Shown: positions 6,844-47,351 of the stretch, one piece after another | Layout: the number at the start of each line of letters is the position of its first letter | Numbering within the stretch: the stretch's first letter is position 1 | Origin: Candidatus Versatilivorator sp. | Lineage (GTDB): Bacteria; Acidobacteriota; Terriglobia; Versatilivoradales; Versatilivoraceae | Reading direction: 5' to 3' | Assembly: GCA_965207735.1 (NCBI GenBank) | Contig: OZ242296.1 | Coordinates: 896,001 to 960,000, forward strand | Length of the DNA: 64,000 nucleotides | The notes under the pieces: generated by a model | The model's input: the letters and a program-made list of their open reading frames with translations, nothing else | Database searches by the model: none | What the model was told of the DNA's origin: nothing | Made by a program: the position numbers and the translations under genes

Positions 6844-6932
6844 GTACGCCAAGCTGTCGAACCCGGTTGTGGGTCGGGCTATTCAGGAAGGGAGCAGGAT
6901 TGTTCCCCGGGAGGGGTCAGTAAGGAAAAATT

Positions 6933-30312: not shown

Positions 30313-31155
30313 ATGGACTCCTTGCTCGCCGTCAAAATCGTTGCAGCTCTATTGATCCTTGCGGTCGGCATTGCCGGTGGCATCATCCCAGTGCTGGCAG
30401 CTCGTCAACATGGAAGCCACAGATTCCTGTCTCTTGGCAACTCCCTGGCGGGCGGCATCTTTCTCGGTGTCGGGTTCATCCATCTGCTGCCGGAAGCGAG
30501 TGAGGCATTCGAGGAAACTTTCGAGTATCCGCTGGCACCGCTGCTGGCGGCAGTGGGCGTCGGACTGCTGCTGCTGATAGACCGGGTTCTGTTCGAAGCA
30601 TACACGCGACCCGGTCAGAACAAGGGAACGCGTCAGCCGATCTATCCCCTGGTTCTTCTCGTAGTTCTTTCGATCCACTCCATTATCGCAGGCACTGCCC
30701 TCGGCCTGGAGGCCGAAGTAGCCACATCGGTGCTCGTTATGCTGGGCATCCTGTTCCACAAGGGTTCGGCTGCCTTCGCCCTGATGGTCAGCGCACACAC
30801 TTCCGGCGCCGACAGGAGAAGTCTCCAGACGGTCTTGACGATTTTCGTGGTGATGACGCCATTGGGGATCGTGCTTGGGACAGTGGCCTCGAACCTTCTC
30901 GCAGGCCAGGCCGCATTGCTTATTGAAGGTGCTTTCAACGCTTTGGCGGCGGGTACGTTCATCTATATCGCGATTCTGGATGTCATCAATGCAGAAATGT
31001 CCAGGATCGACGATCGTGTCGCGCGTTTCATACGCAGCACTCTGGCCGGGACGGATGATGTCCCAATGCCGACGAAGGACACTGACCGCATCTTCAAATT
31101 TGTTCTGGTGCTTGTCGGCCTTGCCGGTATGGCGGTTCTGGGAATATGGGTGTAG
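30313..31155 (+). CDS. ZIP family divalent metal (Zn) transporter
   Basis: GGIFLGVGFIHLLPEA, LSIHSIIAG, HKGSAAF, AAGTFIYI; about 8 TMs. Confidence 0.88.
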   Translation: MDSLLAVKIVAALLILAVGIAGGIIPVLAARQHGSHRFLSLGNSLAGGIFLGVGFIHLLPEASEAFEETFEYPLAPLLAAVGVGLLLLIDRVLFEAYTRPGQNKGTRQPIYPLVLLVVLSIHSIIAGTALGLEAEVATSVLVMLGILFHKGSAAFALMVSAHTSGADRRSLQTVLTIFVVMTPLGIVLGTVASNLLAGQAALLIEGAFNALAAGTFIYIAILDVINAEMSRIDDRVARFIRSTLAGTDDVPMPTKDTDRIFKFVLVLVGLAGMAVLGIWV

Positions 31156-31243: not shown

Positions 31244-33724
31244 TCAAAAGAATCGCATGGTATAGGTCAAGCGCACACCCCGGCCAATCTCGGGGGCCAG
31301 GTCCTTGATGAATGAGGAATGGTTGCGGTAGAGCCGGTCGCTCAGATTGAAGACCCTGACCGAGAACTGATGAGCCAGGTGCTGCTGGGCGAAGGTGTAA
31401 GAGGCCTTCAGGTTCATCACGGCGTATCCGGGCGTGCGGGTCTCGCCGGTAAAGGTCTGGTGCTGCTGTGCGGCTACAATCAACTCTGGAGAGACCCGGA
31501 AGCCCAGGTGGTTGAAGTCGAACCCCAGCTTGCCCCGAAGCGGAGGAATTCTTGGTAGCGGTGTATTGAGGTCGGTCTCCTGGGCGTCCACGTAGTCGGT
31601 GCCGAGGTTGAGCCAGAGCTTGGGATTCAGGTTGATCCCGAGGTTGGCTTCGGTTCCCAGGAAGCGGGCATTGAGCTGAGTGAATTCAATCACCGGCAAC
31701 CCATCCTCGACTATTCCGGGAGCAAAGGGAAAGATGAAGTTGTCGAAGTTGTAGTAGAAAAGGTTGAGTTCTCCTCTCAGCTTCGGACTGTTGTGGCGCA
31801 GGGACATTTCGATGCCGTCGCCCGTTTCGGGGCGAAGGGCCGGGTCGCCTATCTCGAAAGACAGCGTCCCGGCATGGGGACCGTAGTTGTAGAGTTCCTC
31901 CAGGGACGGAGCCCGAAAGGAGTGGGAGTAGTTGATGACCAGGGCTCCTCCGCTCCAGGTGTCCACCTGCAGGCCGGCTGACGCCGATGCTCCGGTAAAG
32001 GTGCGATTTACGGCCTCGGGGATTTCCTCGCCTTCTTCCGCTTCATGGTCCGCCTCTTCCTGGCCGCTCTCGTCGTCGGCATGGCCTCCCCCGCGCTCGG
32101 CAAAACCCGGCCGGTAGCGCTGCGTCTCCAGCCTGCCGCCGAACTGGAACCTGGCGGCTTCGAATTCCAGTTCCTCAAGGACGTAGAGGGCAAAGCCGGT
32201 CTGATCGATCGGGGGCGACAGCGCTTCCTCCCCGACTGCCGAGTATTCTCGATCCAGGCCCCAGAAGCCGAAGCGGCCGCTCAACGGTCCAATCTTTTTC
32301 TGCTCGAAGACTCCCCGATAGACGAATTCCTGTTGGTCGAACGTCGTGCCGACAACTTGTTCCCCGTTCTCGAAGAACTCGATCTCCTTGTGATTCCAGT
32401 CAGTCAAGCTCATTTTCAGAACAAATTCGTCTATTGCCGTCCCCAGGTCCCTCAATCCCCCGGTGAAACGGACGTTCCGGCGCCGTGAGTCGAGAAGGAT
32501 ACGGTCGATCTCCTCCTCGCCGTGATCCTCGCCTTCCTCGCCGTGGTCCTCACCCTCTTCGTCGTGATCCTCGCCTTCCTCGTCGTCATCCTCGCCCTCT
32601 TCGTCGTGATGCTCGCCTTCTTCGTCGTGGTCTTCGCCCTCTTCGTCGTGGTCCTCGTCCCCATGGCCCTCTTCGCCATGGTGTCCGTGAAACTCCTGAA
32701 CGAAGGGTACGCCGTAGGCGCCGTCGTCGAATTTGGCTTCGACACTGAAGAAAATCTTGTCCCCGTACCAGCCCAGACCCGCTCCGCCATTTCTGAGTTG
32801 AGAGCGTGAATTGTAGATCTGCCCCTGTTCCGCCGCCCTGTAGTCACCGGTTCGAACACCCCCACCGCGTCCCCAGATCATCCAGTTGCCGGTTCCAAAC
32901 TCCAGACCGGCGCTGCCCCCACCCAAGGCGTTGGCGGTGCCGCCCGATCCGGACACGAATCCGCGAAACCCCTGGTGCGCATGGCGGTGAGCTTCGTGGT
33001 GACGACTGATGGCATTGACCGTGCCGCCCATGGCGTTTCCGCTGTAGAGCAGGGTCGCCGGTCCCTTGACGATCTCCAGCCGCTCCAGCTGCGCGGGATT
33101 GATCATCTCGCCATGGTCGCCGGACTGGGACGAAAGCGTACCTGTCCGGATGCCGTCTTCCATGATCAGCACGCGGTCCCCGTCAAAACCGCGCACGATC
33201 GGCCGGGCGGGGCCCGGTCCGAAGCTGCGCTTGGCAATCCCGGTGCCGACTCTGTGGTCCAGCATTTCCCCGAGAGAGATATCGGTCGATTGACCCAGTT
33301 CATGGGGCCCGATCGATTCCACGCTCTGGAAGGATTCAAATGTCGTCTCCCGCTTTTCCGATCCCGTGACCGTGACCTCATACTGGGGGGGAGCCAATAC
33401 CAGTCGAAAATCGGCCTCGACCGTTTGACCGGCCTCGATGGTCACCGTTGCGGAGGCTTCAGTAAAAAGGCTGTCGAGATGAGCTTCAACCGTATATCTG
33501 CCGGGAGCCACTTGTTGGAACCTGTAACTTCCATCGTCCCGGCTGAGAGTGATCCGGCCCAGTTCCACAATGGTCACGCTGACGCCGTGCAGCGGTTCCC
33601 CGCCGGCTTCCAAAGAGACGCGGCCCTTCAGGCTGCCGTCCGATTGGGCGACTGCGACTGGTTGGGCCGCCAGAGACAGCGCAGCCAACCAGAGGAGTGA
33701 AAGCAACCGGATTCCAATGTGCAT
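31244..33724 (-). CDS. TonB-dependent receptor, ZnuD-like, with N-terminal carboxypeptidase-regulatory-like domain
   Basis: Signal peptide; plug motifs RPIVRGFDGDRV, DHG, KGPATLLY; RAPSLEELY..GPH; PLPRIPP; C-terminal F; His/acidic loops. Confidence 0.9.
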   Translation of the reverse strand: MHIGIRLLSLLWLAALSLAAQPVAVAQSDGSLKGRVSLEAGGEPLHGVSVTIVELGRITLSRDDGSYRFQQVAPGRYTVEAHLDSLFTEASATVTIEAGQTVEADFRLVLAPPQYEVTVTGSEKRETTFESFQSVESIGPHELGQSTDISLGEMLDHRVGTGIAKRSFGPGPARPIVRGFDGDRVLIMEDGIRTGTLSSQSGDHGEMINPAQLERLEIVKGPATLLYSGNAMGGTVNAISRHHEAHRHAHQGFRGFVSGSGGTANALGGGSAGLEFGTGNWMIWGRGGGVRTGDYRAAEQGQIYNSRSQLRNGGAGLGWYGDKIFFSVEAKFDDGAYGVPFVQEFHGHHGEEGHGDEDHDEEGEDHDEEGEHHDEEGEDDDEEGEDHDEEGEDHGEEGEDHGEEEIDRILLDSRRRNVRFTGGLRDLGTAIDEFVLKMSLTDWNHKEIEFFENGEQVVGTTFDQQEFVYRGVFEQKKIGPLSGRFGFWGLDREYSAVGEEALSPPIDQTGFALYVLEELEFEAARFQFGGRLETQRYRPGFAERGGGHADDESGQEEADHEAEEGEEIPEAVNRTFTGASASAGLQVDTWSGGALVINYSHSFRAPSLEELYNYGPHAGTLSFEIGDPALRPETGDGIEMSLRHNSPKLRGELNLFYYNFDNFIFPFAPGIVEDGLPVIEFTQLNARFLGTEANLGINLNPKLWLNLGTDYVDAQETDLNTPLPRIPPLRGKLGFDFNHLGFRVSPELIVAAQQHQTFTGETRTPGYAVMNLKASYTFAQQHLAHQFSVRVFNLSDRLYRNHSSFIKDLAPEIGRGVRLTYTMRFF
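32511..32689 (-). repeat. 21-bp tandem repeat encoding (HDEEGED)n
   Basis: About 8 imperfect heptapeptide units inside the TonB receptor. Confidence 0.85.
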
Positions 33725-34086
33725 GATGCCCTCCGAAGATAGCCGTGCCGAGTGCCAGCTTAATTGCCGAATCCGTTCTGCAGCCACTGGAATGTCAGGG
33801 GCGGGATATATGTTCGGATAAGCGGGATAAGAATCCGATCGAGCGGGACCGGTGACGACCACATAACAGTTGACGTGCTCCGTCTGTCCGGGTAATCTGC
33901 TCAGCAACGCGTTGCGGAGTATTTACCGCACAGCCCAAGAAGATATGTGGACAATCCGCTTGGTTATTAGTGGGCACACTGGCCGCGCCCGGCTGCACGA
34001 CCCCCACTCCGGGTAATTCGCGGACGGGTTGAGGGGCCGTATCGGCCTCAGTTGGGAGATTCCAATTGGCTGTGGGATCCTTGAGC

Positions 34087-36489
34087 ATGTTGGCTGCATT
34101 CTTCGACTTCCTCTGGTCGTCCTTTCTCTTGTTAGCGCCCATGCTGCTGTTGGGGCTCTTTCTTTCGGGCCTCATTCACGTCTTTATTTCGCGTAAAGCT
34201 ATTCTCCGGTGGCTCCGTGACGACAGCCTGAAGTCGGTAACCACCAGTGCGGCCATCGGCGTGCCGGTCCCGCTGTGCAGTTGCTCGGTCGTGCCCGTGG
34301 TCGCCGAGATGCGGAAGAAAGGAGCGTCCCGCTCCTCCTGCATGTCGTTCCTGATCACTGCCCCGGAAACAGGCGCGGACTCGATCCTGGTCACCAACGC
34401 CTTCTTTGGATTGGTGGCGGCAATAGTCCGGCCCATCATCAGCTTCGTCACTGCGACCGTCGCCGGCATTTTTTGCATCGGTCTCATCAGAGACGATCGC
34501 GACGCGAAAGTGAGTGGTCACGGCCACGATCATGACCACGACCACGATCATGACCATGACCACGGTTCCCACGAGCCGCTCACGCCCGGCCAGGACGACT
34601 GCTATATCAGCTTTTCTCAATTGAAAGGCGCTATGGGGCGCTGGATGAGGGGAATCGCTACGGCGGCCGGGCGGGCGGTGGGCAGGTGGAAGTCCACATC
34701 CTGGGTCAAGCCGGAGTTCTATCGCGATCAGGCGCTGGCTGACGAGCCATCCGCCGACAGGTCGCAGGTCGATGCGCCCGCGGATGACCGGATGCCGAGC
34801 TTCAAGACGATCGTCAGGCATATCTTTCGCTACGGTTTCGTCGAAATCGCCGACGACATTCTCTTCGCGCTGCTCGTCGGGGTGGCCTTGGGGGGAGTGC
34901 TCTTTCTGGTGATTCCGAGCGATCTGATGTCGAACGAGTACGCCCGCTGGATGTCCTACCCCATCATGGTTCTGGTGGGAGTTCCGCTCTACATTTGCGC
35001 ATCGGCAAGCACCCCGATCGCCGCCGCGCTGGTCGCCAAGGGTTTCAGTCCGGGAGCGGCCCTGATTTTTCTCATGACGGGTCCGGCGACCAACACGGGC
35101 ACTATCGCGATCATCACAAGCCAGTTCGGCGCGCGTTTCGCGACCATCTACGTCTCGGCCGTGATCGTAGTGACCGTCATCGTGGGTATCTTGATTGATA
35201 TTCTGCTTCTGGCCACAGGCATGACCATCCCCGTGTACCTGGGGGCCTCGGACTCGCCGGCCATATTGTTGCTGCAATGGGGAGGCGCCTTGGGCCTCAT
35301 CGCCCTGATCATCTGGCGATTCCGGGCCGGCGCCTTGCGAAGCGGCTGGGAGGATCTGATGGTCAACATCCGGCCTCTGTCCAGGGGCTGGAGACAGGCG
35401 TGGGAACGTCTGACCCGAGGCCGGTCCCTCCGCGGCGCCATCACTCCGACCACTCCGGCGGGCAGGGGTCTCTCCGTTGTGGTCCTTGCCCTTTTCCTCG
35501 GCAGCGGCTTCACCTCCGTGCCTCCGGGAGAGGTCGGCTACGGTCGCCTGTTGGGCAAGGTTGTCTGGAGGGACCTGGAGCCGGGACTGCACTACCTTGT
35601 CCCCTGGCCCTTCGTTCAGGTCGATAAATGGCCGGTCCGGGAAGTGAAGTCGCTCATGGCCGGCGACGCCCACGAATACGTTTCCGGCGATCTGAACCTG
35701 ATTTCTCTCGTGGTCAATGTGCAATATCGGGTGAAGGACCCTTACCTCTACCATTACCGGATAAGCGACGCCCAGAGAATCGTCAAGGACGGCGTCAGGG
35801 ACCATGTGCGCTCCTTCGTATCCGCCCGAGATATGGATCAGCTCCTCAATGTTCATCGCGCAGCCTTGGAGGAGAGCGTCAACGAATTGTTCCAAAGCGA
35901 GCATCTGTCGCATCCGGAAGCGCAAGCCTTGGCGTTCGAGAGCGTCGAACTGGTGAAGGTGAACCTGTCGGCCATCAGTCCCGTACCCGAGGCCATGAGC
36001 GCGTTCCGGGAGGTATCGAGCGCGCAAGAGGACAAAGCTCGCATCATCACCAATGCGCAGCGGCTCCTGGTGTCTCTGATTCCCCAGGCGCACGGTAATG
36101 CCGACTACGAGGTGAAACAGGCCGCCGGCGAGGCGCACCGGAGAGTGAAGACGTCCGGGGCTGAGGCCGGTGCGATCCAGCGGGTGGCCGCGGCCATCCG
36201 AAGTGCTCCGAATGTGCTACGGAATATGCTGTGGCGGGAAAAACTGGAAACCGCACTGTCCGATAAACCCAAGATCATTGTGCCCAACAGACGTAGTCTG
36301 GATAAGGTTTCCTTGTGGAAGGGAAGATCGGCGGGGTCGGGCGCCAAAGCCCGTCATGTCGGCGCCGACAGGAACGCTGCAGACGGCGGGATGAGGGATG
36401 GCGCCAAGAGCGCCGGCCCGAAGAATTCGAAGAAGCCGGCCGACCCGCCCAAGGAATCAACAGCCAATCAGCCGGGAGAAAAAAAGTGA
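34087..36489 (+). CDS. DUF318/SO_0444-family metal permease fused to a C-terminal HflK-like SPFH domain
   Basis: PLCSCSVVP, PETGADS, (HD)n tract, PLYICASASTP, GPATN; then TM + GFTSVPPGEVG..PGLHY..PWP..SGDLNLI..VQYRV..AFREVSSAQED. Confidence 0.85.
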   Translation: MLAAFFDFLWSSFLLLAPMLLLGLFLSGLIHVFISRKAILRWLRDDSLKSVTTSAAIGVPVPLCSCSVVPVVAEMRKKGASRSSCMSFLITAPETGADSILVTNAFFGLVAAIVRPIISFVTATVAGIFCIGLIRDDRDAKVSGHGHDHDHDHDHDHDHGSHEPLTPGQDDCYISFSQLKGAMGRWMRGIATAAGRAVGRWKSTSWVKPEFYRDQALADEPSADRSQVDAPADDRMPSFKTIVRHIFRYGFVEIADDILFALLVGVALGGVLFLVIPSDLMSNEYARWMSYPIMVLVGVPLYICASASTPIAAALVAKGFSPGAALIFLMTGPATNTGTIAIITSQFGARFATIYVSAVIVVTVIVGILIDILLLATGMTIPVYLGASDSPAILLLQWGGALGLIALIIWRFRAGALRSGWEDLMVNIRPLSRGWRQAWERLTRGRSLRGAITPTTPAGRGLSVVVLALFLGSGFTSVPPGEVGYGRLLGKVVWRDLEPGLHYLVPWPFVQVDKWPVREVKSLMAGDAHEYVSGDLNLISLVVNVQYRVKDPYLYHYRISDAQRIVKDGVRDHVRSFVSARDMDQLLNVHRAALEESVNELFQSEHLSHPEAQALAFESVELVKVNLSAISPVPEAMSAFREVSSAQEDKARIITNAQRLLVSLIPQAHGNADYEVKQAAGEAHRRVKTSGAEAGAIQRVAAAIRSAPNVLRNMLWREKLETALSDKPKIIVPNRRSLDKVSLWKGRSAGSGAKARHVGADRNAADGGMRDGAKSAGPKNSKKPADPPKESTANQPGEKK

Positions 36490-37382
36490 TGACCTTGAAG
36501 GCAAAAAGAGTCGCCGCAACCATTGCCGTGATTGCTTTTGGCGTCGTTGCCTACGATGCCCACTACATCATCGACGAAACGCAGCAGGGGGTGCTGACCC
36601 ACTTCGGCAGGATTTCTCCTCCCGTCAAACAGCCCGGTCTCCACCTCAAGTGGCCCTGGCCCATCTCCAAGGTATACAAGGTTGATCGCCGCATTCATGT
36701 TCTCACCGACCTCACCCAGGAATTGATTACGGAAGACCAGAAGAGCGTTCTGATCAACGGGTATCTGCAATGGCGGGTCCAGGATCCCATCCTCTTCGTC
36801 GAGGCGATCCGAACCGCCCAGAGCGCCACCGAGCGGCTGAGGAATCTGTACACCTCGAGCAGCGGCATCGTCATCAGCAACGAGGCCCGGGACGCCTTTA
36901 TCAGTCTGGGCCTGGAACACGAAGATCTGACCAAGGCCGCCAGGGAGATTGTCGGCCTCATTGCGCCCATCGCAAGCGAGAACTACGGTATCGAGGTGAC
37001 CGGGGGCGGAATCGTCGAATACACCTTGCCGCTGGAGAACCGGCCAAGCGTGATTCAGCGAATGATCTCGGAGCGCGCCCGCATCGCCGCCCGCTATCGC
37101 AGTGAAGGGGAAGAGATGGCGATCCGCGTCGAGGCACGGGCCATCAACGAGCACGAAAAGCTCATGGCCGATGCCCACGCGGAAGCAACCGCCATTCTTG
37201 GCGATGCGGAAGCCGAAGCGATGCAGTTGCTCGGCAAGGCCTATCGACAGGATCCGGAGTTCTACAAGTTCATCCGCGCTCTCGACAGCTACGATCTGAT
37301 CATCGACAAGAACACTACCCTCATGCTGCCGGCGGATAACGAGTTGTTCAAGTATCTCGACAGCAGGCAAGTACCCAGATAG
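36489..37382 (+). CDS. HflC-like SPFH protein
   Basis: ATG overlaps the upstream TGA; THFGR, PGLHLKWPWP, RMISER..AARYRSEGEE, AYRQDPEFYKFIRALDSY. Confidence 0.88.
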   Translation: MTLKAKRVAATIAVIAFGVVAYDAHYIIDETQQGVLTHFGRISPPVKQPGLHLKWPWPISKVYKVDRRIHVLTDLTQELITEDQKSVLINGYLQWRVQDPILFVEAIRTAQSATERLRNLYTSSSGIVISNEARDAFISLGLEHEDLTKAAREIVGLIAPIASENYGIEVTGGGIVEYTLPLENRPSVIQRMISERARIAARYRSEGEEMAIRVEARAINEHEKLMADAHAEATAILGDAEAEAMQLLGKAYRQDPEFYKFIRALDSYDLIIDKNTTLMLPADNELFKYLDSRQVPR

Positions 37383-37396
37383 TTCGGGTTCGGCTA

Positions 37397-38692
37397 ATGA
37401 ACGGACAACAATCAACTCCGACAAGCACGCGAGTCATATACGCCGTATTTGACTTTTACGGGTTGCACCGCACCCAGATTCTTGCGGGCCTCGCCGCGGT
37501 GGTCTTGATCTGCCTGCTGGCCACCGGCTTCTACATCGTCAAGAAGGAGGAGCAGGGCCTGCGCACCCGCTTCGGGCGAGTGGTCGATGCGGAAGTCGGT
37601 CCGGGAATCGGATACCGCATCCCCCTCATCGAACGGATGCACATCCGCAAGGTCAAGAGAATCGTCGGATACCGGATAGCCAGCAGGGACAGCGATACGA
37701 TCAACTTCACGGTCCTGTCCGGAGACACCAACCTTCTCGAAGTCGATGTGGCCATTCAGTACAGAATTGGCAACCTCAGGCAGTTCCTGTTTGCGAGCAC
37801 CGACCCCCAGACTTTGCTCACCATGCTCGTTCGCGAGGAACTGATCAACATTCTCGGGCAGCACTTTATCGACTTGATCTTCACTTCGAATCGCAATCTC
37901 ATTCAGCAGCATCTGATCGACGCCGTGATCGGGCGCCTCGAATCTCTGGATGTCGGCATGGAGCTCATCACGCTGAAAATCGTCAATGTGCGACCGATCC
38001 CGGAGACCCGTGATGCGTTCCGGGATGTCAACGATGCCATCGCCGAACGCGAGCAGGCCGTGAGCGGAGCAAATCGCAGGAGAGAACAGTTGATCGCTCG
38101 CAGCAAGGGGCAGGCTGAAGCGTTGATAATGAACGCCAAGGCGAGCGCCCGGGAACGGATTGTTCAGGCGCGAAGCAGCGCCGGCGTCTTCAGGGCGCTG
38201 CTGGCTGAATATCGGAAGCAGCCGCAGTCTGTGGCCATCACGCGTTACTGGCAACGCATGCGAGCGATCTTTACCGAGGCAAGCCTGGCGATGGTGAACC
38301 CGGGCCGGCCATCCACCATCGACATCAACATGATTGACGGCGCACCGGGATTCACCCCGGCCCAGATGTTGTTGCAAGCGCCGCCTACGGATTCTGCAGC
38401 TCTCGAGGGGCGGCTGCCCGGTTCGACGGTGGCGCCGGACATTCACACGCTGGAAAACATCGGGAAGGACAAACTCCTGCTGGAAGGACAGTTTCATAGA
38501 GAACGCACTGAGCGCGACCATCAAAAGGGAGCCAACCCCCGGTCGCTCATATTCGATACGCCGTCCATATTCTCCCATCGGCACATAAGGCCTCGCGGAG
38601 GGATTGTCAGGCAGCAGGAGAGCCAGAAGCCGATGGTGGAGTCGATGGCTGAGGAAGGCGCGGAGAAAGACAAGCCTGCGAAGGGGAAATAG
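37397..38692 (+). CDS. HflK-like SPFH protein with long C-terminal extension
   Basis: TM + GFYIV..EQG..RFG, GPG, SGDTNLL, QYRI, DAFRDVNDA, A.G.A helical repeats. Confidence 0.85.
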   Translation: MNGQQSTPTSTRVIYAVFDFYGLHRTQILAGLAAVVLICLLATGFYIVKKEEQGLRTRFGRVVDAEVGPGIGYRIPLIERMHIRKVKRIVGYRIASRDSDTINFTVLSGDTNLLEVDVAIQYRIGNLRQFLFASTDPQTLLTMLVREELINILGQHFIDLIFTSNRNLIQQHLIDAVIGRLESLDVGMELITLKIVNVRPIPETRDAFRDVNDAIAEREQAVSGANRRREQLIARSKGQAEALIMNAKASARERIVQARSSAGVFRALLAEYRKQPQSVAITRYWQRMRAIFTEASLAMVNPGRPSTIDINMIDGAPGFTPAQMLLQAPPTDSAALEGRLPGSTVAPDIHTLENIGKDKLLLEGQFHRERTERDHQKGANPRSLIFDTPSIFSHRHIRPRGGIVRQQESQKPMVESMAEEGAEKDKPAKGK

Positions 38693-38693
38693 C

Positions 38694-39884
38694 ATGACCG
38701 AATGTCTGCTCCGGAAATGTCGATCAGCGCCGTTGCTGGTATTACCGTTGCTGTTGGCACCCTGGCCTTCGATGGCGGCCGACGGCGTCTACGCGGACAA
38801 AATCGTCTTTGGACAGAGCGCCTGTCTATCGGGGCCCAACAGGGATCTGGGGCGCCATTACCGGGCAGGTATCCTGGTGGCCTTCGGGGAACGGAACGCT
38901 CTCGGGGGGATCGACGGCAGGTCTCTGGAACTGATCACGCGCGACGACGGCTACGAGCCGGGCCAGGCAGCGGCGAACGCGCAGAGATTCGTCGCCGAGG
39001 ACGATGTGTTGGCCGTCATCGGCGGGGTGGGAACGCCTACCTCGAGGCGGATCGCTCCAGTGCTGCGAGCGGCCAAGATTCCGTTTGTGGGACACATTAC
39101 GGGCGCCGGCTTTCTGCGCGATGCCGGGCAGTATCCGAATGTCGTCAATCTGAGGGCGAGTTATCAGGACGAAATCCGCATGCTGGTAAACCACACCGTT
39201 GGCCACCACGGCAAGAGACGGTTCGGCATCATCTACCAGGACGATGCCTTCGGTCGATCGGGGCTGAAGGGCTACAAGGTGGCGCTCGACGAGCACGGTC
39301 TTCCCCTGCTGGCGAAAGCGGCCTTTTCGCGCAATACCCATGCCGTCCATGCCAGCCTCTTCTCCCTGGCCAAGGCCGATCTGGATGTGATTCTGGTCGT
39401 CGGAACCTACACCACCAATGCAGATATCATCAACTTGGCAAAGAGCCTGGGACACGACTACATCATGGCCAACCTGTCTTTCGTCCTGTCCTATGAATTG
39501 AAGAAGAGAATCGAGGTGCCGGGCAGCCGAATCGTGGTAACCGAGGTCGTGCCTGACGTGAACGACCCGAATAGTCGAGTCGTTCAGAGTTTTCGGCGCG
39601 CCCTTCGAGCGTCAGGCGGACGAACGGTAAAATCCGAAATGCCCGCGATCAACGAGGTATCTCTGGAAGGCTATATACTTGGCCGCTTTGTCATCGCCGT
39701 GCTGGAACGCATGGACGGGGAGTGGACGCGAGAGCGCTTTCTGGATCGGGCTTTGCAATCCGGCCCCGTGGACATTGATGACTGGAAGGTTGAATTCAAG
39801 CCGGGGACGAACACCGGATCGAGCTACGTCAGGTTGACCGTGTTCAATGGCCACGATTCCCACGAGAGGAGAGAGGGTCCTTGA
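38694..39884 (+). CDS. periplasmic substrate-binding protein (LIV/type I family)
   Basis: Signal peptide, FGQSACLSGP, DDGYEP, VGTPT, RASYQDE, YQDDAFG. Confidence 0.85.
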   Translation: MTECLLRKCRSAPLLVLPLLLAPWPSMAADGVYADKIVFGQSACLSGPNRDLGRHYRAGILVAFGERNALGGIDGRSLELITRDDGYEPGQAAANAQRFVAEDDVLAVIGGVGTPTSRRIAPVLRAAKIPFVGHITGAGFLRDAGQYPNVVNLRASYQDEIRMLVNHTVGHHGKRRFGIIYQDDAFGRSGLKGYKVALDEHGLPLLAKAAFSRNTHAVHASLFSLAKADLDVILVVGTYTTNADIINLAKSLGHDYIMANLSFVLSYELKKRIEVPGSRIVVTEVVPDVNDPNSRVVQSFRRALRASGGRTVKSEMPAINEVSLEGYILGRFVIAVLERMDGEWTRERFLDRALQSGPVDIDDWKVEFKPGTNTGSSYVRLTVFNGHDSHERREGP

Positions 39885-40372
39885 AAAAGGTAGACGAGTT
39901 CACCACCGAAGAGGTCGGCGAGGAATGGCTGCGCGAGCTCTACAAGGTTGTCGCTATGCGCCGTGGCACCATGTTCCGGTTGATTACCGAATCGACGCGC
40001 ATGTTGCTTTACGGAAACGCCGGCGGCGCGGCCTTGGTGGTCGGATTCATGAGAGAGCCTTCAGGAAGCCCCGAGAATACGGTGTACCACTGGTTTTCCC
40101 TGCTGACCCTGGTCGTGTTCGGGTTCGGAATCCTGGCCTCGGCCCTGACCATGGTGCTGGTGACTCTGGTCTCGGTGAAGGAGGCCCACGGGGCGGAAAC
40201 CGGATTGAAGGAGTTTGTCGACGGCGATTTGGATCGGACACGGGTGCTGTTTAAAGTTGCGGGCCAGACCTTTCGCCTCGCCGATTTCGCCACGGTGTCC
40301 GGCACCGTCAGCGCCATGAGCTTCATGCTCGGCGGATTGAGCAGCATCGTCCTGCTGACCCTGTTCTTCTAG
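39881..40372 (+). CDS. hypothetical membrane protein (about 3 TMs)
   Basis: TTG start overlaps the upstream TGA, with RBS GAGGG; hydrophobic segments. Confidence 0.65.
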   Translation: MKKVDEFTTEEVGEEWLRELYKVVAMRRGTMFRLITESTRMLLYGNAGGAALVVGFMREPSGSPENTVYHWFSLLTLVVFGFGILASALTMVLVTLVSVKEAHGAETGLKEFVDGDLDRTRVLFKVAGQTFRLADFATVSGTVSAMSFMLGGLSSIVLLTLFF

Positions 40373-40397
40373 CCCTCCCTAGAACCGGACCATCACC

Positions 40398-40997
40398 ATG
40401 CTTCAGCTTGCCGGTTCGCTCCTCGCCCCGGTTGCAGGCGCCTTGCTGTACGGGTGGTTGCACAACCGGCCCTATGGCGTGCGCCTCGTTGACGGCTTCA
40501 TGTATGTAGCGGTGCCGGCACTCGTCCTGTGGCAAGTCGTTCCGCACGCCTGGGCCAGTCACGGCCTACTGGCCATTGGGGTCATCGTCCTGGGCATAGT
40601 CACACCCGCTCTCATCGAGCGCCTCTCTCACAAGCTTGCTCCGCACACCGACAACCTGGCTCTCCTGGCCGGGTTGTCGGGGCTGTCGCTGCACGCGTTT
40701 CTGGAGGGAGCGGCGCTCGTTTCAAAAGCGCTTCATATCGGACTCGCCGTGATTCTGCACCGGATTCCGGTCGGCCTGACGGTCTGGTGGTTGTTACGTC
40801 CCCGTCACGGCTTCAGGGGAGCTTCACTGGGAATTGCGGCGATCCTCGTGGCCACGGTCGCCGGTTACGCTGCCGGCGCCCGTTTCTTCGGGGACGGTCA
40901 TAGCGGTGCAGGGCTCTATCAGGCGTTTGTCGGCGGATCGCTTCTGCACGTGGTGTTTCACCAGAGCCGCCGCGACCATAGTCACGAGCACGACTAG
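40398..40997 (+). CDS. short ZIP-like membrane protein with His-rich tail
   Basis: LSLHAFLEG and LHRIPVG resemble ZIP TM4/TM5; C-terminus DHSHEHD. Confidence 0.7.
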   Translation: MLQLAGSLLAPVAGALLYGWLHNRPYGVRLVDGFMYVAVPALVLWQVVPHAWASHGLLAIGVIVLGIVTPALIERLSHKLAPHTDNLALLAGLSGLSLHAFLEGAALVSKALHIGLAVILHRIPVGLTVWWLLRPRHGFRGASLGIAAILVATVAGYAAGARFFGDGHSGAGLYQAFVGGSLLHVVFHQSRRDHSHEHD

Positions 40998-41002
40998 CGA
41001 GG

Positions 41003-41347
41003 CTATAAAGAGGCCAGAGCGCTCCAGCGCGAGTTGCGGATCAGCATGACCTGATCGAAGCCGCTGACGCGAAAAACCTCGTGGATGTTGTCCTTCATGG
41101 AGCACAAGATGAACTTGCCCTGTTTCGACTGAAACTGTTTGGCAGCTACCAGAATCACACGCATTCCCGCACTGCTGACAAATTTGAGCCGGCTGAAGTC
41201 GATAATCAGGTTCTGTTCACCGTTCCTGATGTGATCCATTACCAGTGATTCAAACGAGTCCGCATTCGGGCCGTACAAGCGGTTGACAGGGATCAGAACC
41301 AACACCCCGGATTCTCGCTCCTCGATTACTTCAATATCAGTGATCAT
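41003..41347 (-). CDS. STAS domain protein (anti-sigma factor antagonist)
   Basis: LIIDFSRLKFVSSAGMRV...VFRVSGFD. Start placed at MITDIEV. Confidence 0.85.
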   Translation of the reverse strand: MITDIEVIEERESGVLVLIPVNRLYGPNADSFESLVMDHIRNGEQNLIIDFSRLKFVSSAGMRVILVAAKQFQSKQGKFILCSMKDNIHEVFRVSGFDQVMLIRNSRWSALASL

Positions 41348-41465: not shown

Positions 41466-44400
41466 TCACGCCTCATCGTCGCTTTCGAGCCAGCGATACA
41501 GCGATGGAAGCACGAAAAGCGTCAGCAGAGTCGAGGTTACCAGTCCACCGATGACGACCGTCGCCAAGGGACTCTGCACCTCGGCACCCGCACTGGTCGA
41601 CAAGGCCATGGGAACGAATCCGAGACTGGCGACCAGTGCCGTCATCAGGACCGGCCTCATGCGGCGCTCGGCGCCCTGACGCACCGCCTCGTCCACCGTC
41701 ATACCCTGCTTTCTGAGGTCGAGAAAGTAGGAAACCATCACGACGCCGTTCAGCACCGCAACGCCGAAGAGCGCGATGAAGCCGACGCCGGCTGAGATGC
41801 TGAGAGGCAGTCCGCGCAGGAACAGCGCCAGGATGCCTCCGGTGGCCGCCAGCGGGATGTTGAAGTAGATGAGCATTGCCGGCTTGGCCGCCTTGAAGGC
41901 CGTATAGAGCAATAGAAAGATCAGGAAGAGTGCAATCGGCACGACCAGGGCCAAGCGTTTGGTGGCCCGCTCCATGTTCTCGAACTGTCCACCGTATTCC
42001 ACGGAATAGCCGGGTGGCAGATCGACTCCGCCGGCAACCGCCGCCCGCACATCTGTGGCGAAACTGCCGAGATCGCGGCCGCGCACGTTGGCTTCGACTG
42101 TAATTCTCCGCTGGATCTGCTCCCGGCTAATCTGAGCCGGGCCCTCCTCGGTCCAGATCTCGGCGAGTTGCGACAGCGGGATCATGGCGCCGCCAGGATC
42201 AGACACCCGGATCGATCGGATCTGCTCGATATTGTTGCGGGCCTCGGGCACGAACCTCGCCCGCAAGGGGAAGCGAGCCTGTCCCTCGAGCACCTCGCCG
42301 AGCGTCGTTCCTCCCATCGTCTCGACCACGGCCAGTACGTCGGCGACATTGATGCCATAACGAGCCACCGCTGCACGATCGATCCGTACACGCAGAAAAG
42401 GCAGTCCGGACGTCTGTTCCGCCTTGACGTCGGCGGCGCCGGGAACGCCGGCCACCACCCGCCGCACCTCGTCCCCGATGCGTCGTAACTCGTCGAGGTC
42501 GGGACCGTATACGGTGACCGCCAAGTCGGAACGGACACCAGCGATCATCTCCTGCATGCGCAATTCGATGGGTTGCGAGTAGCTGAAGATGTTGCCGGGC
42601 ACCCGATGCTCGAGCGCACGGTTGATCTCCTCGATCAGGCCTTCCTTGGTATCGGCCGTTTCCCAGTTACTGTCGTCGGTCAGGATCGCATAGATGTCGC
42701 TGGTCTCAACCCCCATCGGGTCGGTGGGGATCTCGGCTTGACCGGTCCGAGAAACCACCGTCACAACCTCGGGGAATTCCAGCAGCGTCTTCTCGATGAG
42801 TGTCGTGCTCTTGGTTGACTCCGAGAGCGCTACGCTTGGGAGACGCCAAGCCTGAACCGCAATGGCGCCCTCGTTGAGCTTGGGCAGGAACTCCGTGCCC
42901 ATGAAGGGGACCAACAGGAGCGAAGCGGCAAAGACGAGCGCCGCTCCGGCTCCGGCCAGGCGCGGATACGACAGAACCCTGTCGAGCAGCGGTCGGTACA
43001 GCCTCAGCAGCCAGGCCACCAGGCGGGGGGTCTTGTGTGGGATTCGCTTCCGAAACACCATCAGGGAGAGCACCGGCATCAGCGTCAGAGCCAACACCAG
43101 TGAAGCCACCAGAGCGAAGACCACGGTCAGGGCCATTGGCCGGAACATCTTTCCTTCGATTCCCTGCAGGACCATGATGGGCAGGTAGACGATGATGATG
43201 ATCATCACCGCAAAGAACACCGGGCGCGCCACTTCGCGACCTGCCCAGCCCACCACCTCACCACGTATCTGTCCATTTCGCGCCTGGCTCAGGCGCCGAA
43301 CGATGTTCTCGACCATGACAACCGATCCGTCGACGATCAGCCCGAAGTCGATTGCGCCCAGGCTCATCAAGTTGCCGGAAAGCCCTGCCTGTACCATTCC
43401 GGTAAAGGCGAACAGCATCGATAACGGAATCACCGAGGCGACGATCAATCCTCCGCGCAGGTTGCCCAGAAACAGCAGGAGCACGGCGATCACCAGCAGG
43501 CCCCCTTCCACCAGGTTCTGCTGCACGGTGGCTATGGTCCGCCGGACCAGATCGGTTCGGTCGTAGAAGGTTTCGATTTCAACGCCTGGAGGCAATGTCG
43601 GTTTGATGCGCGCCAACTCCTCGTCCACCTTTCGAGCAACGACGCGCGGGTTCTCGCCCATCAGCATCATGACGACGCCGGTCACCACCTCGCCTCTACC
43701 GTCTCGAGTCACGGCGCCCTGCCGGACCATGGGCGCGAAGGCGGCTTTGCCGATATTGCGAATGAAGATGGGAGTACCGTCCTCGACGGCCGTGACCACG
43801 ATATTGTCGATGTCCTCAAGGGAGTCGATCAGGCCCTCGCCGCGAATGACGTACTGCTCCTGGGAGCGTTCGATGTAAGCGCCTCCCGCATTCGCGTTGT
43901 TCTCTCGAAGCGCGTCGAAGACCATTTCGAGCGAAACGTTGTGGGCAACCAGGCGATTGGGATCGAGCTGCACCTCATAGGTTTTGAGCTCGCCACCGTA
44001 GGAATTCACCTCGACCACGCCCGGTACCGACTGCAGCTTGAACCCGATCTCCCAGTCGAGGATGCTGCGCAACTCCATTGGGGTATACCCTTCGCCACGA
44101 ACCTCGAACTGGTAGATCTCACCCAACCCGGTGCTGATCGGACCCATTGAGGGTGTGCCGTAGCCCTCCGGAATCAACTCGCGGGCCTCGGGCAGCCGCT
44201 CCATTACGAGCCGGCGTGCGAAGTAGAGGTCGATCGACTCTTCGAAATAGATGTAGACCGACGAGAGTCCGAACCGCGAAACCGATCGGATCTTGGTGAT
44301 GCCGGGAAGGCCGCTCATTGCGGTTTCGACTGGAAAGGTGACAAACTGCTCGACCTCCACCGGCCCGAGCCCGGGCGTCTGGGTCAAAACCGCCACCTGG

Positions 44401-44531
44401 TTTGGAGTCACGTCGGGCACCGCATCGATCGGCAACTGGAACATCGAGTAGACGCCGAAGCCGGCAGCCAACAGGGTGAACGCCAGGATGAGAAACCGAT
44501 TGCGGAGGGAGAAATCGATGAGGCGATGCAT
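41466..44531 (-). CDS. czcA: CusA/CzcA heavy-metal RND efflux transporter
   Basis: LPIDAVPD, NLMSLGAIDFGLIVDG, GFIALFGVAVLNG, RPVLMTA. Confidence 0.93.
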   Translation of the reverse strand: MHRLIDFSLRNRFLILAFTLLAAGFGVYSMFQLPIDAVPDVTPNQVAVLTQTPGLGPVEVEQFVTFPVETAMSGLPGITKIRSVSRFGLSSVYIYFEESIDLYFARRLVMERLPEARELIPEGYGTPSMGPISTGLGEIYQFEVRGEGYTPMELRSILDWEIGFKLQSVPGVVEVNSYGGELKTYEVQLDPNRLVAHNVSLEMVFDALRENNANAGGAYIERSQEQYVIRGEGLIDSLEDIDNIVVTAVEDGTPIFIRNIGKAAFAPMVRQGAVTRDGRGEVVTGVVMMLMGENPRVVARKVDEELARIKPTLPPGVEIETFYDRTDLVRRTIATVQQNLVEGGLLVIAVLLLFLGNLRGGLIVASVIPLSMLFAFTGMVQAGLSGNLMSLGAIDFGLIVDGSVVMVENIVRRLSQARNGQIRGEVVGWAGREVARPVFFAVMIIIIVYLPIMVLQGIEGKMFRPMALTVVFALVASLVLALTLMPVLSLMVFRKRIPHKTPRLVAWLLRLYRPLLDRVLSYPRLAGAGAALVFAASLLLVPFMGTEFLPKLNEGAIAVQAWRLPSVALSESTKSTTLIEKTLLEFPEVVTVVSRTGQAEIPTDPMGVETSDIYAILTDDSNWETADTKEGLIEEINRALEHRVPGNIFSYSQPIELRMQEMIAGVRSDLAVTVYGPDLDELRRIGDEVRRVVAGVPGAADVKAEQTSGLPFLRVRIDRAAVARYGINVADVLAVVETMGGTTLGEVLEGQARFPLRARFVPEARNNIEQIRSIRVSDPGGAMIPLSQLAEIWTEEGPAQISREQIQRRITVEANVRGRDLGSFATDVRAAVAGGVDLPPGYSVEYGGQFENMERATKRLALVVPIALFLIFLLLYTAFKAAKPAMLIYFNIPLAATGGILALFLRGLPLSISAGVGFIALFGVAVLNGVVMVSYFLDLRKQGMTVDEAVRQGAERRMRPVLMTALVASLGFVPMALSTSAGAEVQSPLATVVIGGLVTSTLLTLFVLPSLYRWLESDDEA

Positions 44532-44695
44532 GTTAGTGCGAGTGGCCGATCCGCACGTGATCGATCGGCAATTGGAACATTGAATGCACTCCGAACTCGG
44601 AAGCCACTACCGTGAACGCCAGGATGCGATACCGATTGTGGCGGGAGGAATCGACGAGGGAATTCATGTTAGTGCGAATGACCGATTCGCTCGTG
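44424..44695. repeat. diverged 136-bp tandem duplication of the czcB/czcA junction
   Basis: 44424-44559 versus 44560-44695; both contain ATCGATCGGCAA...GTGAACGCCAGGATG...CATGTTAGTGCGA. Confidence 0.9.
44533..44667 (-). CDS. 44-aa chimeric mini-ORF (CzcA N-terminus + CzcB C-terminus)
   Basis: MNSLVDSSRHNRYRILAFTVVASEFGVHSMFQLPIDHVRIGHSH*, with TAA-C-ATG junctions on both sides. Confidence 0.55.
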   Translation of the reverse strand: MNSLVDSSRHNRYRILAFTVVASEFGVHSMFQLPIDHVRIGHSH

Positions 44696-46018
44696 AAGCA
44701 ACGCGGTTTTCAAATAGAAGCTGCCGGTCGACACGATCGTTTCGCCCGGCTTCAGGCCGCTGACCACCTCAACCTGACCGCCGGCCGTCGAACCGAGCGT
44801 CACGTCGCGGCGCTCAAAGGCGGTCGGTCCTGTCCGCGCGAAGACAACTGACTGCCCGTCAATCTGTTGAACCGCATCCACGGGAGCCACCAGCGTGGAA
44901 ACCTTCTCATTTGTAGGGATGGAAACTCTGGTGAACATGCCGAGCTTCAGCGCCTTGTCGGGATTCTTGACGACACAGCGCACGTGAGCGGCGCGCGTGC
45001 TCATTTCGATGGTGTCCGAGATGTAGGTGATGCGGCCGGTGAACACCCGGTCCGGATAGGCATCGACCTGAATCGTGACTTCGGCGTCCGTTGGGAGGCG
45101 GCCCAGGTCGGGCTCGTAGACATCGGCGAGAACCCAAACCGTTGACATGTTGGTAATCGTCAGCAGCTCGCGGCCAGGATCGACCAGGTCGCCCACTGCC
45201 ACACCGAACTCCGTCACGGTCCCCGCGAAGGGTGCGCGAAGCACATTGAGCGACATTTCGCGGTGTCGTTCCGCGGCCGCCCGCATCTCGTCGGCACTAC
45301 CGCTCGGGGCGACTTCCGAAAGGTCTTCGTCCGTCAGTCCGAAGCGATGTATCCGCTCCTCGATTCTGCTCACCTCCGCCTGGTTGCTGACCAGGCCGGC
45401 CCGGGCCTGCTCGAACTCCGACCGGCGCAGATCGAGGGTCTGCTGAGAGATCGCCTCAAGGCCGATCAATTGCTCTGCCCGTTGCAAGCTCCGTTGCAAG
45501 ACCTCTAGGTCGGCCTCGGCCTGGCGTCGAGCCGCTACCGCCGCCCGGTATTCCCCGATGTGGTCTCCAAGCGCGATGTTGTCGTAATGCACGAGCACTT
45601 GTCCCGCTCGCACGCGGTCGCCAAGGCTGACGTCGACTTGCTTGACGACCCCCTCCGCCAACGGCCGCAGGCGCACCACTCGTGAGATGACGGGCGTGAC
45701 CAGACCGGTCACGTTCATCGGTACGGGATGGGCACGGCGCTCCGCGGCTGCAACCTGCATGCCGGCGTTCTGCTGGGCCTCCAGGGGAATCTCCAGCGAA
45801 CCATCGGCCTCGTCTCCGGCGTGCTCTTCACCGTCATGGGTCTCGCCGGCGTGTTCCTCCTCAGCGTGGTCTTCCCCATGGTGAGCCCCATTGTTTCCCG
45901 TCTCCAGGCAGGCTGAACCTGCCGCGGCTCCCAAGCAGATCGCCAGCCAGACGAGCACTGCACCCAGCCCGCCTTGCCGGCGCAGTCTGTGACGCAGTCG
46001 GTGACGCGGTCCATGCAT
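44669..46018 (-). CDS. czcB: heavy-metal RND periplasmic adaptor (CzcB-like)
   Basis: His/Glu-rich N-terminus, LRAPFAG, VWVLADVYE, LKLGMF, C-terminal GHSH. Confidence 0.88.
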   Translation of the reverse strand: MHGPRHRLRHRLRRQGGLGAVLVWLAICLGAAAGSACLETGNNGAHHGEDHAEEEHAGETHDGEEHAGDEADGSLEIPLEAQQNAGMQVAAAERRAHPVPMNVTGLVTPVISRVVRLRPLAEGVVKQVDVSLGDRVRAGQVLVHYDNIALGDHIGEYRAAVAARRQAEADLEVLQRSLQRAEQLIGLEAISQQTLDLRRSEFEQARAGLVSNQAEVSRIEERIHRFGLTDEDLSEVAPSGSADEMRAAAERHREMSLNVLRAPFAGTVTEFGVAVGDLVDPGRELLTITNMSTVWVLADVYEPDLGRLPTDAEVTIQVDAYPDRVFTGRITYISDTIEMSTRAAHVRCVVKNPDKALKLGMFTRVSIPTNEKVSTLVAPVDAVQQIDGQSVVFARTGPTAFERRDVTLGSTAGGQVEVVSGLKPGETIVSTGSFYLKTALLHERIGHSH

Positions 46019-46043
46019 TTGCAATCGCTCCCTCGGAGCCGGG

Positions 46044-47351
46044 TCAGGGTTTTCCCGTCGGCCGGATGCCGACGGCCGCCGCCATCTCTATCAGGCTGAT
46101 GCGCAGGTCGTAGAGAGCCTGGTTGCGCACCTGCTGAGTTACGATGAATTCGCGCTGCACATCCAGGAAATCGATCAGCGCGGTCTCGCCAAGGTGGTAG
46201 GAGGCCTGGATCAGGTCATGCAATTCCCTTGAGCTGCGAAGATACTCCTGGTCAATATAGCGGACCCGCTTCGCACTGCTGTCGACGGCGTTGGCCGCCA
46301 TCTGCAACTCGGTGTCGACCGCCAACTTTTCCGCCCTCTCCAGTGCCTGGGCTCGGCGTCGTTCGGCAAAGGCCCGCTGTACTCCAGCGGGATTCAGACT
46401 GCCGAATAACGGAATCGGGATGCTGACTTCGAAATCCATGGCGTGCTCGCCGAAATCCCGGCGGTAGCCCCAGGCGAAAGTGACATTTGGAGCACGCATC
46501 GCGTGTTGCAGCTCCATCTCGGCTTCAGCGCGTTCGCGGGCATGGCGAGCGGCCTGCAGATCCGGCCGGATTGAGGCAGCGTCCTTCCGCAACGAATTCA
46601 ATTCAGCCGTGACGCCCTCACCCGTGGCGATCAGTCCACCGTCCGGACTTCGGAGTGGAGACGGCTCCAGCGGATCTATCGCTTCGAGCTGTTGCCGCAG
46701 GTCGGCTGCTCCGAGCAGATTCAGCAACACCACGCGTGCGTCGCTCATCGCCAGTTCCGTTGTCAGGACCTCATCGAAGAAATGGAGGCGCTCCACCTGC
46801 AGCCGGCGGAGCTCCGTGCCTGCCACTTCACCCACCTTGAACCTGGCCTCGGTCAAGGCGATGACACGCTCAATATCCTTGAGCGCCGCTTCCGCCGTGG
46901 TCTGATTGGCTTGGGCGAGTGCAAGCTGGAAGTATGCCTTGCTTACTTCGAGCTGCAGACGTCGAAGTTCATCGGCAACTTCCGAGCGCGCCACCCCGAT
47001 ACCGGCGTCAGCTGCTTTCATGCGGTGCCCACGACGGCCGGCGGTCTCGATCTCCTGCTCCATTCGGACGATCAAGGCCTGGCCGTTCAGGAATGAGGGA
47101 ACGTTGGGCCCAAAGATCGAATACTCCTCGCCTTCCACTGCAATTTCGGGGTTCGGCCGGCTGGCCGCCTCGCGCGCATCCGCCTCCGCGATCTCAACCA
47201 GGTTTCGGGCGGCGCGGAAATTGGCGTTGGCCACCTCGGCGATGCGCAGGGCATCGGCAAGCGTCAACCTTTCCGGGATCTCCGTATCCTGCCCCGATGC
47301 CGGAATATAAAGCAGGAACAGGGCACAGAAGAACAGCGTGGCGAACCTCAT
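46044..47351 (-). CDS. czcC: TolC/CzcC-family outer membrane efflux protein
   Basis: Signal peptide, RPNP, QEIETAGRR, RPDLQAAR, YHLGE..LIDFLD. Confidence 0.85.
   Translation of the reverse strand: MRFATLFFCALFLLYIPASGQDTEIPERLTLADALRIAEVANANFRAARNLVEIAEADAREAASRPNPEIAVEGEEYSIFGPNVPSFLNGQALIVRMEQEIETAGRRGHRMKAADAGIGVARSEVADELRRLQLEVSKAYFQLALAQANQTTAEAALKDIERVIALTEARFKVGEVAGTELRRLQVERLHFFDEVLTTELAMSDARVVLLNLLGAADLRQQLEAIDPLEPSPLRSPDGGLIATGEGVTAELNSLRKDAASIRPDLQAARHARERAEAEMELQHAMRAPNVTFAWGYRRDFGEHAMDFEVSIPIPLFGSLNPAGVQRAFAERRRAQALERAEKLAVDTELQMAANAVDSSAKRVRYIDQEYLRSSRELHDLIQASYHLGETALIDFLDVQREFIVTQQVRNQALYDLRISLIEMAAAVGIRPTGKP

Follow-up and report, generated by a model that had tools for sequence, protein, structure and literature searches.

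In E. coli, HflK and HflC assemble into a cage of 24 alternating subunits (PMC12048511), within which the HflK tail is located (PMC12005517). This assembly acts with FtsH and influences the stability of membrane proteins (PMC12005517, PMC13220708), and mutations of HflK residues R141, E142 and R185 weaken the FtsH pull-down (PMC13220708). For these and all further papers cited by accession or DOI, our statements refer to the accessible portions of the text. Can such a cage come with a transporter of its own? The window analysed here, a stretch of 64,000 nucleotides from Candidatus Versatilivorator sp. (GCA_965207735.1, contig OZ242296.1, positions 896,001 to 960,000), contains a cassette whose first gene encodes an ArsP/SO_0444 permease and an HflK-like domain (K1) in one chain, followed by HflC (C) and a second HflK (K2); these three SPFH genes are referred to here as a triad, and a two-gene K–C pair as canonical. 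FtsH binding by a two-gene HflKC is, to our knowledge, known for E. coli only. With the E. coli HflK/HflC–FtsH structures (PDB 7vhp, 7wi3, 9cz1, 9cz2) the cassette shares the succession of anchor helix, SPFH domain and coiled coil, the K and C types, and a C-terminal tail on K. Unlike the E. coli system, it has three SPFH genes, which group apart from canonical ones in the trees, the first fused to a transporter, as well as a histidine-bearing tail, attached binding and membrane proteins and a patchy distribution over phyla. We regard it as a variant of the HflK/HflC cage that lies outside the canonical system; genomically the case is strong, and the mechanism discussed below is a proposal.

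An unfused operon of similar layout has already been published in Pseudomonas aeruginosa, with regulation data and a knockout. PA2437–39, beside the gene of the Zn/Cu importer HmtA, are up 9–14-fold in a znuA mutant (PMC4542158), their proteins become more abundant when zinc is depleted (PMC11761036), and Zur binds to the promoter of PA2439 (PMC8531726). The zinc-starvation-induced region PA2434–PA2439, described as patchy and horizontally spread, shares with the cassette a three-SPFH operon and a metal transporter (a match by layout, with the plasmid loci L146 and L147), but its transporter HmtA is a separate P1B ATPase. Deletion of a three-SPFH operon of strain PA14 (PaFlo5–7) gave about 20% less biofilm and lower virulence in wax-moth larvae (PMC13086221); in its accessible portions the main text of that paper does not contain the words ‘ATPase’, ‘copper’ or ‘hmtA’, and the triple-knockout passages include no metal test. 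PaFlo5–7 are probably PA2437–39, and both are probably kin of the cassette, matched by layout only.

Other systems share single features. The permease resembles SO_0444/ArsP_1 (DUF318) proteins, exceeding both family cut-offs and carrying the CSC and Y-x-C motifs, but unlike them it is fused to an SPFH domain. In the mycobacterial PacL–CtpC efflux platforms (PMC9374683, PMC13043812) a metal-binding membrane partner likewise organises a pump; PacL1, unlike the cassette proteins, is described with a cytoplasmic Gln/Ala-repeat region and not SPFH, and the accessible text does not mention a fusion. Stomatin cups (PMC13724742) also fence a membrane patch holding transporters with an SPFH ring, but they are eukaryotic and cytosolic homo-16-mers with many non-covalent cargoes. 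Among the papers that searches of open PubMed Central and bioRxiv literature listed, no title or abstract start describes a transporter–HflK fusion.

A permease fused to an HflK-type domain

The preliminary description of this DNA had read a metal permease and an HflK-type domain in a single open reading frame, which Pfam domains, motifs and independent contigs confirm. The frame 34087–36489 is stop-free, with PF03773 (ArsP_1) at aa 3–371 (E 2e-44) and PF01145 at aa 477–658 (E 1.5e-15), and contains the motifs CSC (aa 64–66) and YICA (aa 302–305) and a His/Asp loop (aa 145–162). The permease part exceeds the curated cut-offs of NF033936 SO_0444 (318 against 300 bits) and PF03773 (152 against 32), and K1 scores 126.7 with the HflK model TIGR01933, below its cut-off of 159.4. 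Could the fusion be an artefact of assembly or a frameshift? We give this next to no credence, as single contigs span the permease–SPFH junction in frame in four of four runs from four studies, and both Pfam domains stand in one chain in 117 of the best 120 homologues (out of 728 matches). The sole indel case in those contigs is a compensating +1/−1 pair in the C-terminal tail of the fusion. An AlphaFold model of the fusion (pLDDT 49, pTM 0.31) was discarded, and no fold search was made from it.

On which side of the membrane does the SPFH part lie? In all three SPFH chains PF01145 follows a membrane anchor. The linker that precedes the K1 anchor helix is basic (median 9 K/R against 3 D/E in 36 homologues) and, judged by its charge, likely cytoplasmic; by the positive-inside rule, the SPFH domain of K1 would then face the periplasm.

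A five-gene core cassette

A search of GTDB genomes, with 39 of 64 parts covered, yielded 68 loci from the best 80 of 629 matches: 38 fused, 27 with a permease lacking K1, and three partial. With the window included, 35 of the 39 fused loci have the order fusion, HflC, K2, binding protein, membrane protein; three of the remaining four are cut at contig ends and one is truncated. The same order is found in 53 metagenome loci wherever they are long enough, which are outside these counts. The core is therefore composed of five genes: the fusion, HflC, K2, the binding protein and the 163-aa membrane protein (Table 1). In the window they are tightly packed: the HflC start overlaps the fusion stop (TGATG), K2 begins after 14 nt and the binding protein after 1 nt, and the membrane protein overlaps the binding-protein gene by 4 nt; the coordinates of the reading frames agree in all these with the spacing first reported. 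Fused loci occur in Terriglobia, Bryobacterales, Latescibacterota, Gemmatimonadota, Opitutales, Spirochaetia, Dadabacteria, Binatia and Alpha- and Gammaproteobacteria. They stand at 61–83% identity, which over so wide a range of taxa points to horizontal spread of the cassette.

HflC passes TIGR01932 (157.5 against a cut-off of 134.4). K2 scores 144.2 with TIGR01933, below the cut-off that some of its homologues narrowly pass, and its best PDB match is E. coli HflK (E 2e-27). In the K2 tail, four histidines and three acidic residues are invariant in 19 sequences, and this motif is seen only in loci of the window's type, which likewise have the binding protein and the membrane protein. The operon contains a periplasmic binding protein and no ABC permease. 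The membrane protein has no Pfam match, and its best 120 homologues (of 365) brought no Pfam family or informative name; at 76%, its mean column identity is the highest of all parts, with H70, E101 and E106 invariant and a GNxGG helix motif. Its ESM Atlas match to PycTM (0.80) was set aside, being below the lead threshold.

The core leaves out three local neighbours: the His-tailed gene, the TonB receptor and czcCBA. Is the His-tailed 199-aa protein ZIP-like, as the preliminary description had it? Motifs read by eye and features in the ESM Atlas (0.92; 25 of 30 matches within the PF02535 set) agree with that name, but Pfam, NCBIfam and a local ZIP profile (PF02535) gave no match, BLAST detected no similarity to the ZIP transporter at 30313–31155, and similar sequences turned up solely in loci of the same genus. 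A Pfam-positive ZIP occupies the same slot, directly after the membrane protein, in 23 of the 35 full cassettes. Profile scans found the divergent TonB receptor and the convergent czcCBA genes where they had first been placed.

Table 1. Features of the cassette and its neighbours, in window coordinates
Feature	Position	Strand	Remarks
Fusion gene, 800 aa	34087..36489	+	ArsP/SO_0444 permease, basic linker, anchor helix, HflK-like SPFH/coiled coil (K1)
Permease domain, aa 1-410	34087..35316	+	CSC nt 34276-34284 and YICA nt 34990-35001, both invariant
His/Asp-repeat loop, aa 145-162	34519..34572	+	Loop length differs among homologues
Basic linker and K1 anchor helix (aa 461-479)	35317..35523	+	
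K1 HflK-like SPFH and coiled-coil region, aa 477-736	35515..36294	+	
HflC, 297 aa	36489..37382	+	Triad-specific clade
K2 (HflK2), 431 aa	37397..38692	+	Second HflK-like protein
K2 tail motif	38444..38578	+	Candidate metal site; H350, D358, H367, E372, H375, D387, H394 invariant
Type-1 periplasmic binding protein	38694..39884	+	PF13458; core part
Membrane protein, 163 aa	39881..40372	+	No known family; core part
His-tailed ZIP-like protein, 199 aa	40398..40997	+	Not core
His-rich TonB-dependent receptor	31244..33724	-	Divergent; neighbour
ZIP transporter	30313..31155	+	PF02535; neighbour
czcCBA-type heavy-metal RND efflux genes	41466..47351	-	TIGR00914 1213 bits; neighbours

The TonB receptor, which we take to be ZnuD-like, is rich in His and Glu and has a close paralogue in the same genome (C1:3135235-3137850). 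Between the divergent genes lies a perfect 12-bp palindrome (33904-33915), whose pattern occurs six times in the genome and is altered in both congeners. A STAS-domain gene (41003-41347) sits between the operon and czcA, and a Na/Pi cotransporter gene (47645-48793) on the far side of czcCBA; the latter type also lies near six of the 39 fused loci. Further on, a 1762-aa protein (49719-55007) presumably combines, as read by eye, an N-terminus of arylsulfatase type with fibronectin-like repeats and a run of prolines.

One HflC clade, three transporter families

Is the ArsP permease the only transporter joined to K1? In a genome of the same family a P1B ATPase is fused to K1, with C and K2 following, and the ATPase domain is present in 120 of 120 listed homologues of this P1B-fused K1. 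A transporter-blind HflK search over 150 other genomes of the phylum (three of them unpublished and counted in the denominator only, with 28 weak matches outside the list) listed seven pairs of a long K1 and a K2, and all seven are transporter fusions: two with an ATPase, four with ArsP and one with a CDF (L179 and L181 by similarity only). A plasmid of Aquibium oceanicum carries CDF–K1–C–K2 next to a heavy-metal ATPase, and plasmids of Klebsiella aerogenes and Burkholderia ubonensis carry a long K–C–K with a free P1B ATPase. In the latter two loci (L146:5109-6815, L147:4919-6814) the long first HflK has five to six N-terminal membrane helices and no Pfam family; since their HflC groups with CDF-type triads (100/98), it may be a decayed CDF. 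Plasmid records covering 80% of the ATPase fusion numbered zero. Among 120 genomes drawn from Pseudomonadota, the listed matches at E 1e-24 (eight were unlisted) included no clear triad, at a threshold that divergent types escape. The transport motifs are intact in all 19 variants checked (CDF 5/5, ATPases 9/9, distant ArsP 5/5).

Phylogeny ties these variants together. In the HflC tree, the 20 triad HflC are grouped in a single clade apart from the 21 canonical ones (support 100/98), with eight of the 15 close window-type HflC omitted as redundant. The clade holds under LG+C20 (97) and without the longest pair (99), and it sits inside canonical HflC diversity. In the HflK tree, 16 canonical HflK form one clade (95/91) without any K1 or K2, and the placement of K1 and K2 is settled no further than this exclusion. 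L023, initially taken as HflC, fell among the QmcA-like outgroup and was removed from later trees; L185 (G180), which reaches a contig edge, was excluded. A blind test gave the same picture. A profile of ten triad HflC was run against about 550 genomes of three other groups, and 17 of the 91 matches were taken by HflC score alone, 14 at 329–373 bits and three boundary cases at 327–328; matches above 390 bits, presumed window-type or training rows, and the lower remainder were omitted. Nine of the 17 fell in the clade (100/96), all nine with a Pfam-confirmed transporter–K1 fusion (ArsP 2, P1B 4, CDF 3), and the eight outside it are plain K–C pairs, none of them fused. In leave-one-out runs the HflC score by itself misses long-branched triad types, and clade membership is accordingly set by the tree. 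There is thus a dedicated HflC clade, in whose loci the first HflK carries one of three fused transporters: an ArsP permease, a P1B ATPase or a CDF. The preliminary description had pointed to hflK–hflC–hflK clusters next to heavy-metal P-type ATPases as a sign of a wider metal-transport module; the module exists and is broader than described there, with three transporter families in the same fused slot. Its SPFH chains separate from two-gene HflK/HflC, and of the refuting outcomes named in that description none that was checked came up, so that its interpretation is supported.

Some variants have further genes attached. Two CDF–K1 triads (L212:572-9844, L223:1689-11052) are flanked by feoA/feoB on one side and a DtxR-type regulator on the other, a metallophosphoesterase gene lies immediately downstream of them, and L184 has a DtxR gene and a TonB receptor upstream. 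ATPase-type triads (L020, at 6718-7172; L178, L179, L187 and L188) are followed by a conserved membrane-anchored protein of 150–170 aa, a variant-specific fourth part of which one member was tested and had no Pfam match.

Is the cassette then simply a displaced housekeeping hflKC, with the fusion incidental? The host genome, one closed contig at 100% completeness, offers some ground for this idea: it has no two-gene hflKC, and apart from the three cassette genes its seven SPFH genes comprise four that look stomatin/QmcA/prohibitin-like by sequence and neighbours. We nevertheless consider it very improbable. The triads form a separate clade with three unrelated metal transporters in one slot; a separate canonical hflKC, absent here, coexists with the cassette in 12 of 22 cassette genomes; and the cassette is found in two of 13 congeners, whereas the other 11 lack any HflK-like match, with nothing detected by the fusion profile at E 1e-10.

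Metal genes around the cassette

Do the relatives of the cassette sit among metal genes? Metal-gene profiles were built from Pfam-checked neighbour families of these loci, together with a CzcA BLAST, and applied over a range of about 9 kb. Other metal genes lie near 34 of the 39 fused loci, 25 of 27 unfused ones, three of 11 other triads and none of 18 canonical hflKC loci (12 from cassette genomes, six from unfused-permease genomes), so the homologues are tied to metal genes, a linkage whose absence would have counted against the first reading of the locus. As the profiles come from these very loci and many loci are kin, the counts are no formal statistic. The neighbours of the 39 fused loci are ZIP (25), CzcA (13), ZnuA (7), ZnuB (7), HMA-type P1B ATPases (6), CDF (3) and TonB receptors (3), mostly uptake-type families. 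In the genus itself, a ZIP match is present in eight of 14 genomes, five of them without the cassette, and missing from six; ZnuA is found in 0 of 14, cassette or not, and its complementarity therefore says nothing on the role of the cassette. The host genome has one Fur-family match.

Several arrangements deserve mention. Two ArsP-type cassettes (L095, L186) in G062:C84 converge around znuA/znuC/znuB/znuA genes, and G062, G069 and G074 each have two different triads. Eight unfused loci (L083, L089, L090, L098, L101, L103, L104, L119) have a TonB receptor next to the permease, together with His-rich proteins (one or two per locus) of about 168 aa without Pfam match; some of them add another copy of the permease and a gene of the COG0523 type.

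The cage block as an accessory

Is the cage needed by the permease? At one and the same chromosomal site the cage block can be present or absent: L096/L117/L126 against L081/L082, L105 and its kin against L121 and L099, L129 and its kin against L145, and L109/L120 against L125. What is lost is the block K1–C–K2–binding protein–membrane protein, and what is retained is the permease. In a permease tree of 74 rows the unfused forms are dispersed among the fused ones, the outgroup is fused, and the starred branches require at least six changes between the two states. Unfused permeases end at varying points of the linker, and remnants of K1, K2, the binding protein or the membrane protein persist in several loci. 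Repeated loss of the block is the simplest reading, with four unfused rows lying near a long-branch root; the close standalone relatives of the permease (about 62–78% identity) most likely arose by such loss of the cage. The binding protein and the membrane protein were mostly lost together with the cage; the membrane-protein gene is whole in L091 and partial in L087 and L125. As, on this reading, the block was lost repeatedly while the permease stayed, it is a dispensable accessory of the permease.

How the cage might work

What would such an accessory do? The reading we favour, tentatively and at somewhat short of an even chance, is that the three SPFH proteins form a periplasm-facing cage holding zinc near the fused permease, as an optional aid in zinc scarcity and likely without FtsH. 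By analogy with the E. coli structure, the ring would have about 24 subunits, with K1 or K2 alternating with HflC; several permeases would then be held at a single patch of membrane, and the tail of K2 would lie in the chamber and bind metal. We would guess that the metal is zinc and flows inwards, and that the binding protein and the small membrane protein may act as partners of the cage. The invariant histidines and acids of the K2 tail, a motif confined to window-type loci, favour a zinc-holding cage. In its favour also stand the dedicated HflC clade with the blind test, the intact transport motifs, the mostly uptake-type metal neighbours, the separate hflKC in 12 of 22 cassette genomes, the place of the HflK tail in the E. 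coli cage and the zinc-starvation data from P. aeruginosa.

The weakest step is the direction of flux, since export is suggested by the family label, czc, CDF and P1B, and uptake by ZIP, Znu and the P. aeruginosa data. Many observations weigh against the zinc-uptake cage. The label of NF033936 is efflux, CDFs usually export, CzcA stands beside 13 and an HMA-type P1B ATPase beside six of the 39 fused loci, and the CDF variants, lying beside feoAB and DtxR, may handle Fe or Mn. An arsP/DUF318 relative was singled out as a zinc-stress efflux gene in Shewanella (10.1101/072470), and hmtA mRNA is not zinc-repressed (PMC8531726). Unfused permeases have metal neighbours equally often (25/27), which makes the linkage a property of the permease rather than of the cage; with the same profiles, only three of the 11 other triads have further metal genes, and the kinship of many loci makes the counts overstate independence. 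No regulator palindrome is common across lineages in 69 upstream regions, where the top palindromes are common to at most six loci, each set within one lineage. On the side of phylogeny, a FastTree analysis of 131 SPFH rows puts the long-branched Burkholderia/Klebsiella HflC (L146/L147) outside the clade, though IQ-TREE places them inside, and the tree rows do not include P. aeruginosa sequences. Finally, the position of R141 holds Lys in 15 of 15 window-type K1, and that of R185 has R/K in two of 15, the window's included.

Could the same cage serve outward flux? The transporter would then pump metal into the chamber, to detoxify it or to pass it on to metalloproteins, periplasmic or exported, so that none is lost to the bulk periplasm. 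The SO_0444, CDF and P1B folds are mostly exporters, and the CzcA neighbours fit as well; SCO/PCuAC genes lie near L077 and L186, the metallophosphoesterase directly follows the L212 and L223 triads, and delivery to clients would also suit induction by starvation. Yet the commonest neighbours are uptake families (ZIP 25, ZnuA and ZnuB 7 each, of 39), the window's type of cassette has no conserved client gene, and HmtA is described as an importer (PMC4542158). We hold outward flux to be unlikely, though well worth considering.

A further alternative, which we judge rather improbable, turns on FtsH: the ring would be a scaffold or quality-control device that holds the transporter in clusters and keeps it stable, or that brings in FtsH to remove it upon a change in metal status. 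Canonical HflK/C with FtsH affects membrane-protein stability (PMC12005517, PMC13220708) and PacL proteins scaffold mycobacterial P1B pumps (PMC9374683). The host has a single ftsH match, at C1:3.11 Mb, 2.2 Mb distant and outside the window as first noted, and no other hflKC; a dispensable cage would also suit this explanation. What do the FtsH-related residues say? In canonical HflK the positions of R141, E142 and R185 are themselves variable (R/K in 12/21, E in 1/21, R/K in 13/21). The window K1 has K, S and K there, keeping a basic residue at R141, but the window K2 has V, G and T, and in 15 of 15 K2 sequences neither the R141 nor the R185 position is basic. A scaffold would leave the invariant K2-tail histidines and the co-loss of the binding and membrane proteins unexplained, and the coexisting hflKC of 12 of 22 genomes speaks against it too.

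What the cassette may mean

Beyond the zinc-holding cage of the window, the triads might represent a distinct class of periplasmic metal chambers, in which an SPFH cage of three kinds of subunit, with an exchangeable transporter built in (ArsP, P1B ATPase or CDF) and lined here by a histidine tail, would keep its own metal pool apart from the bulk periplasm and load or feed clients through it. This generalisation is doubtful, if attractive. It is not yet settled how SPFH cages act on the membrane proteins inside them, and HflK/C, the model from bacteria, comes coupled to a protease. In the cassette the client is named by the fusion gene itself, and three unrelated metal transporters are joined to one scaffold lineage. 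Sister genomes offer natural pairs with and without the cage at the same chromosomal site, so that the same transporter can be compared directly with and without the ring. The cassette also offers a testable function for the zinc-regulated three-SPFH operon of P. aeruginosa.

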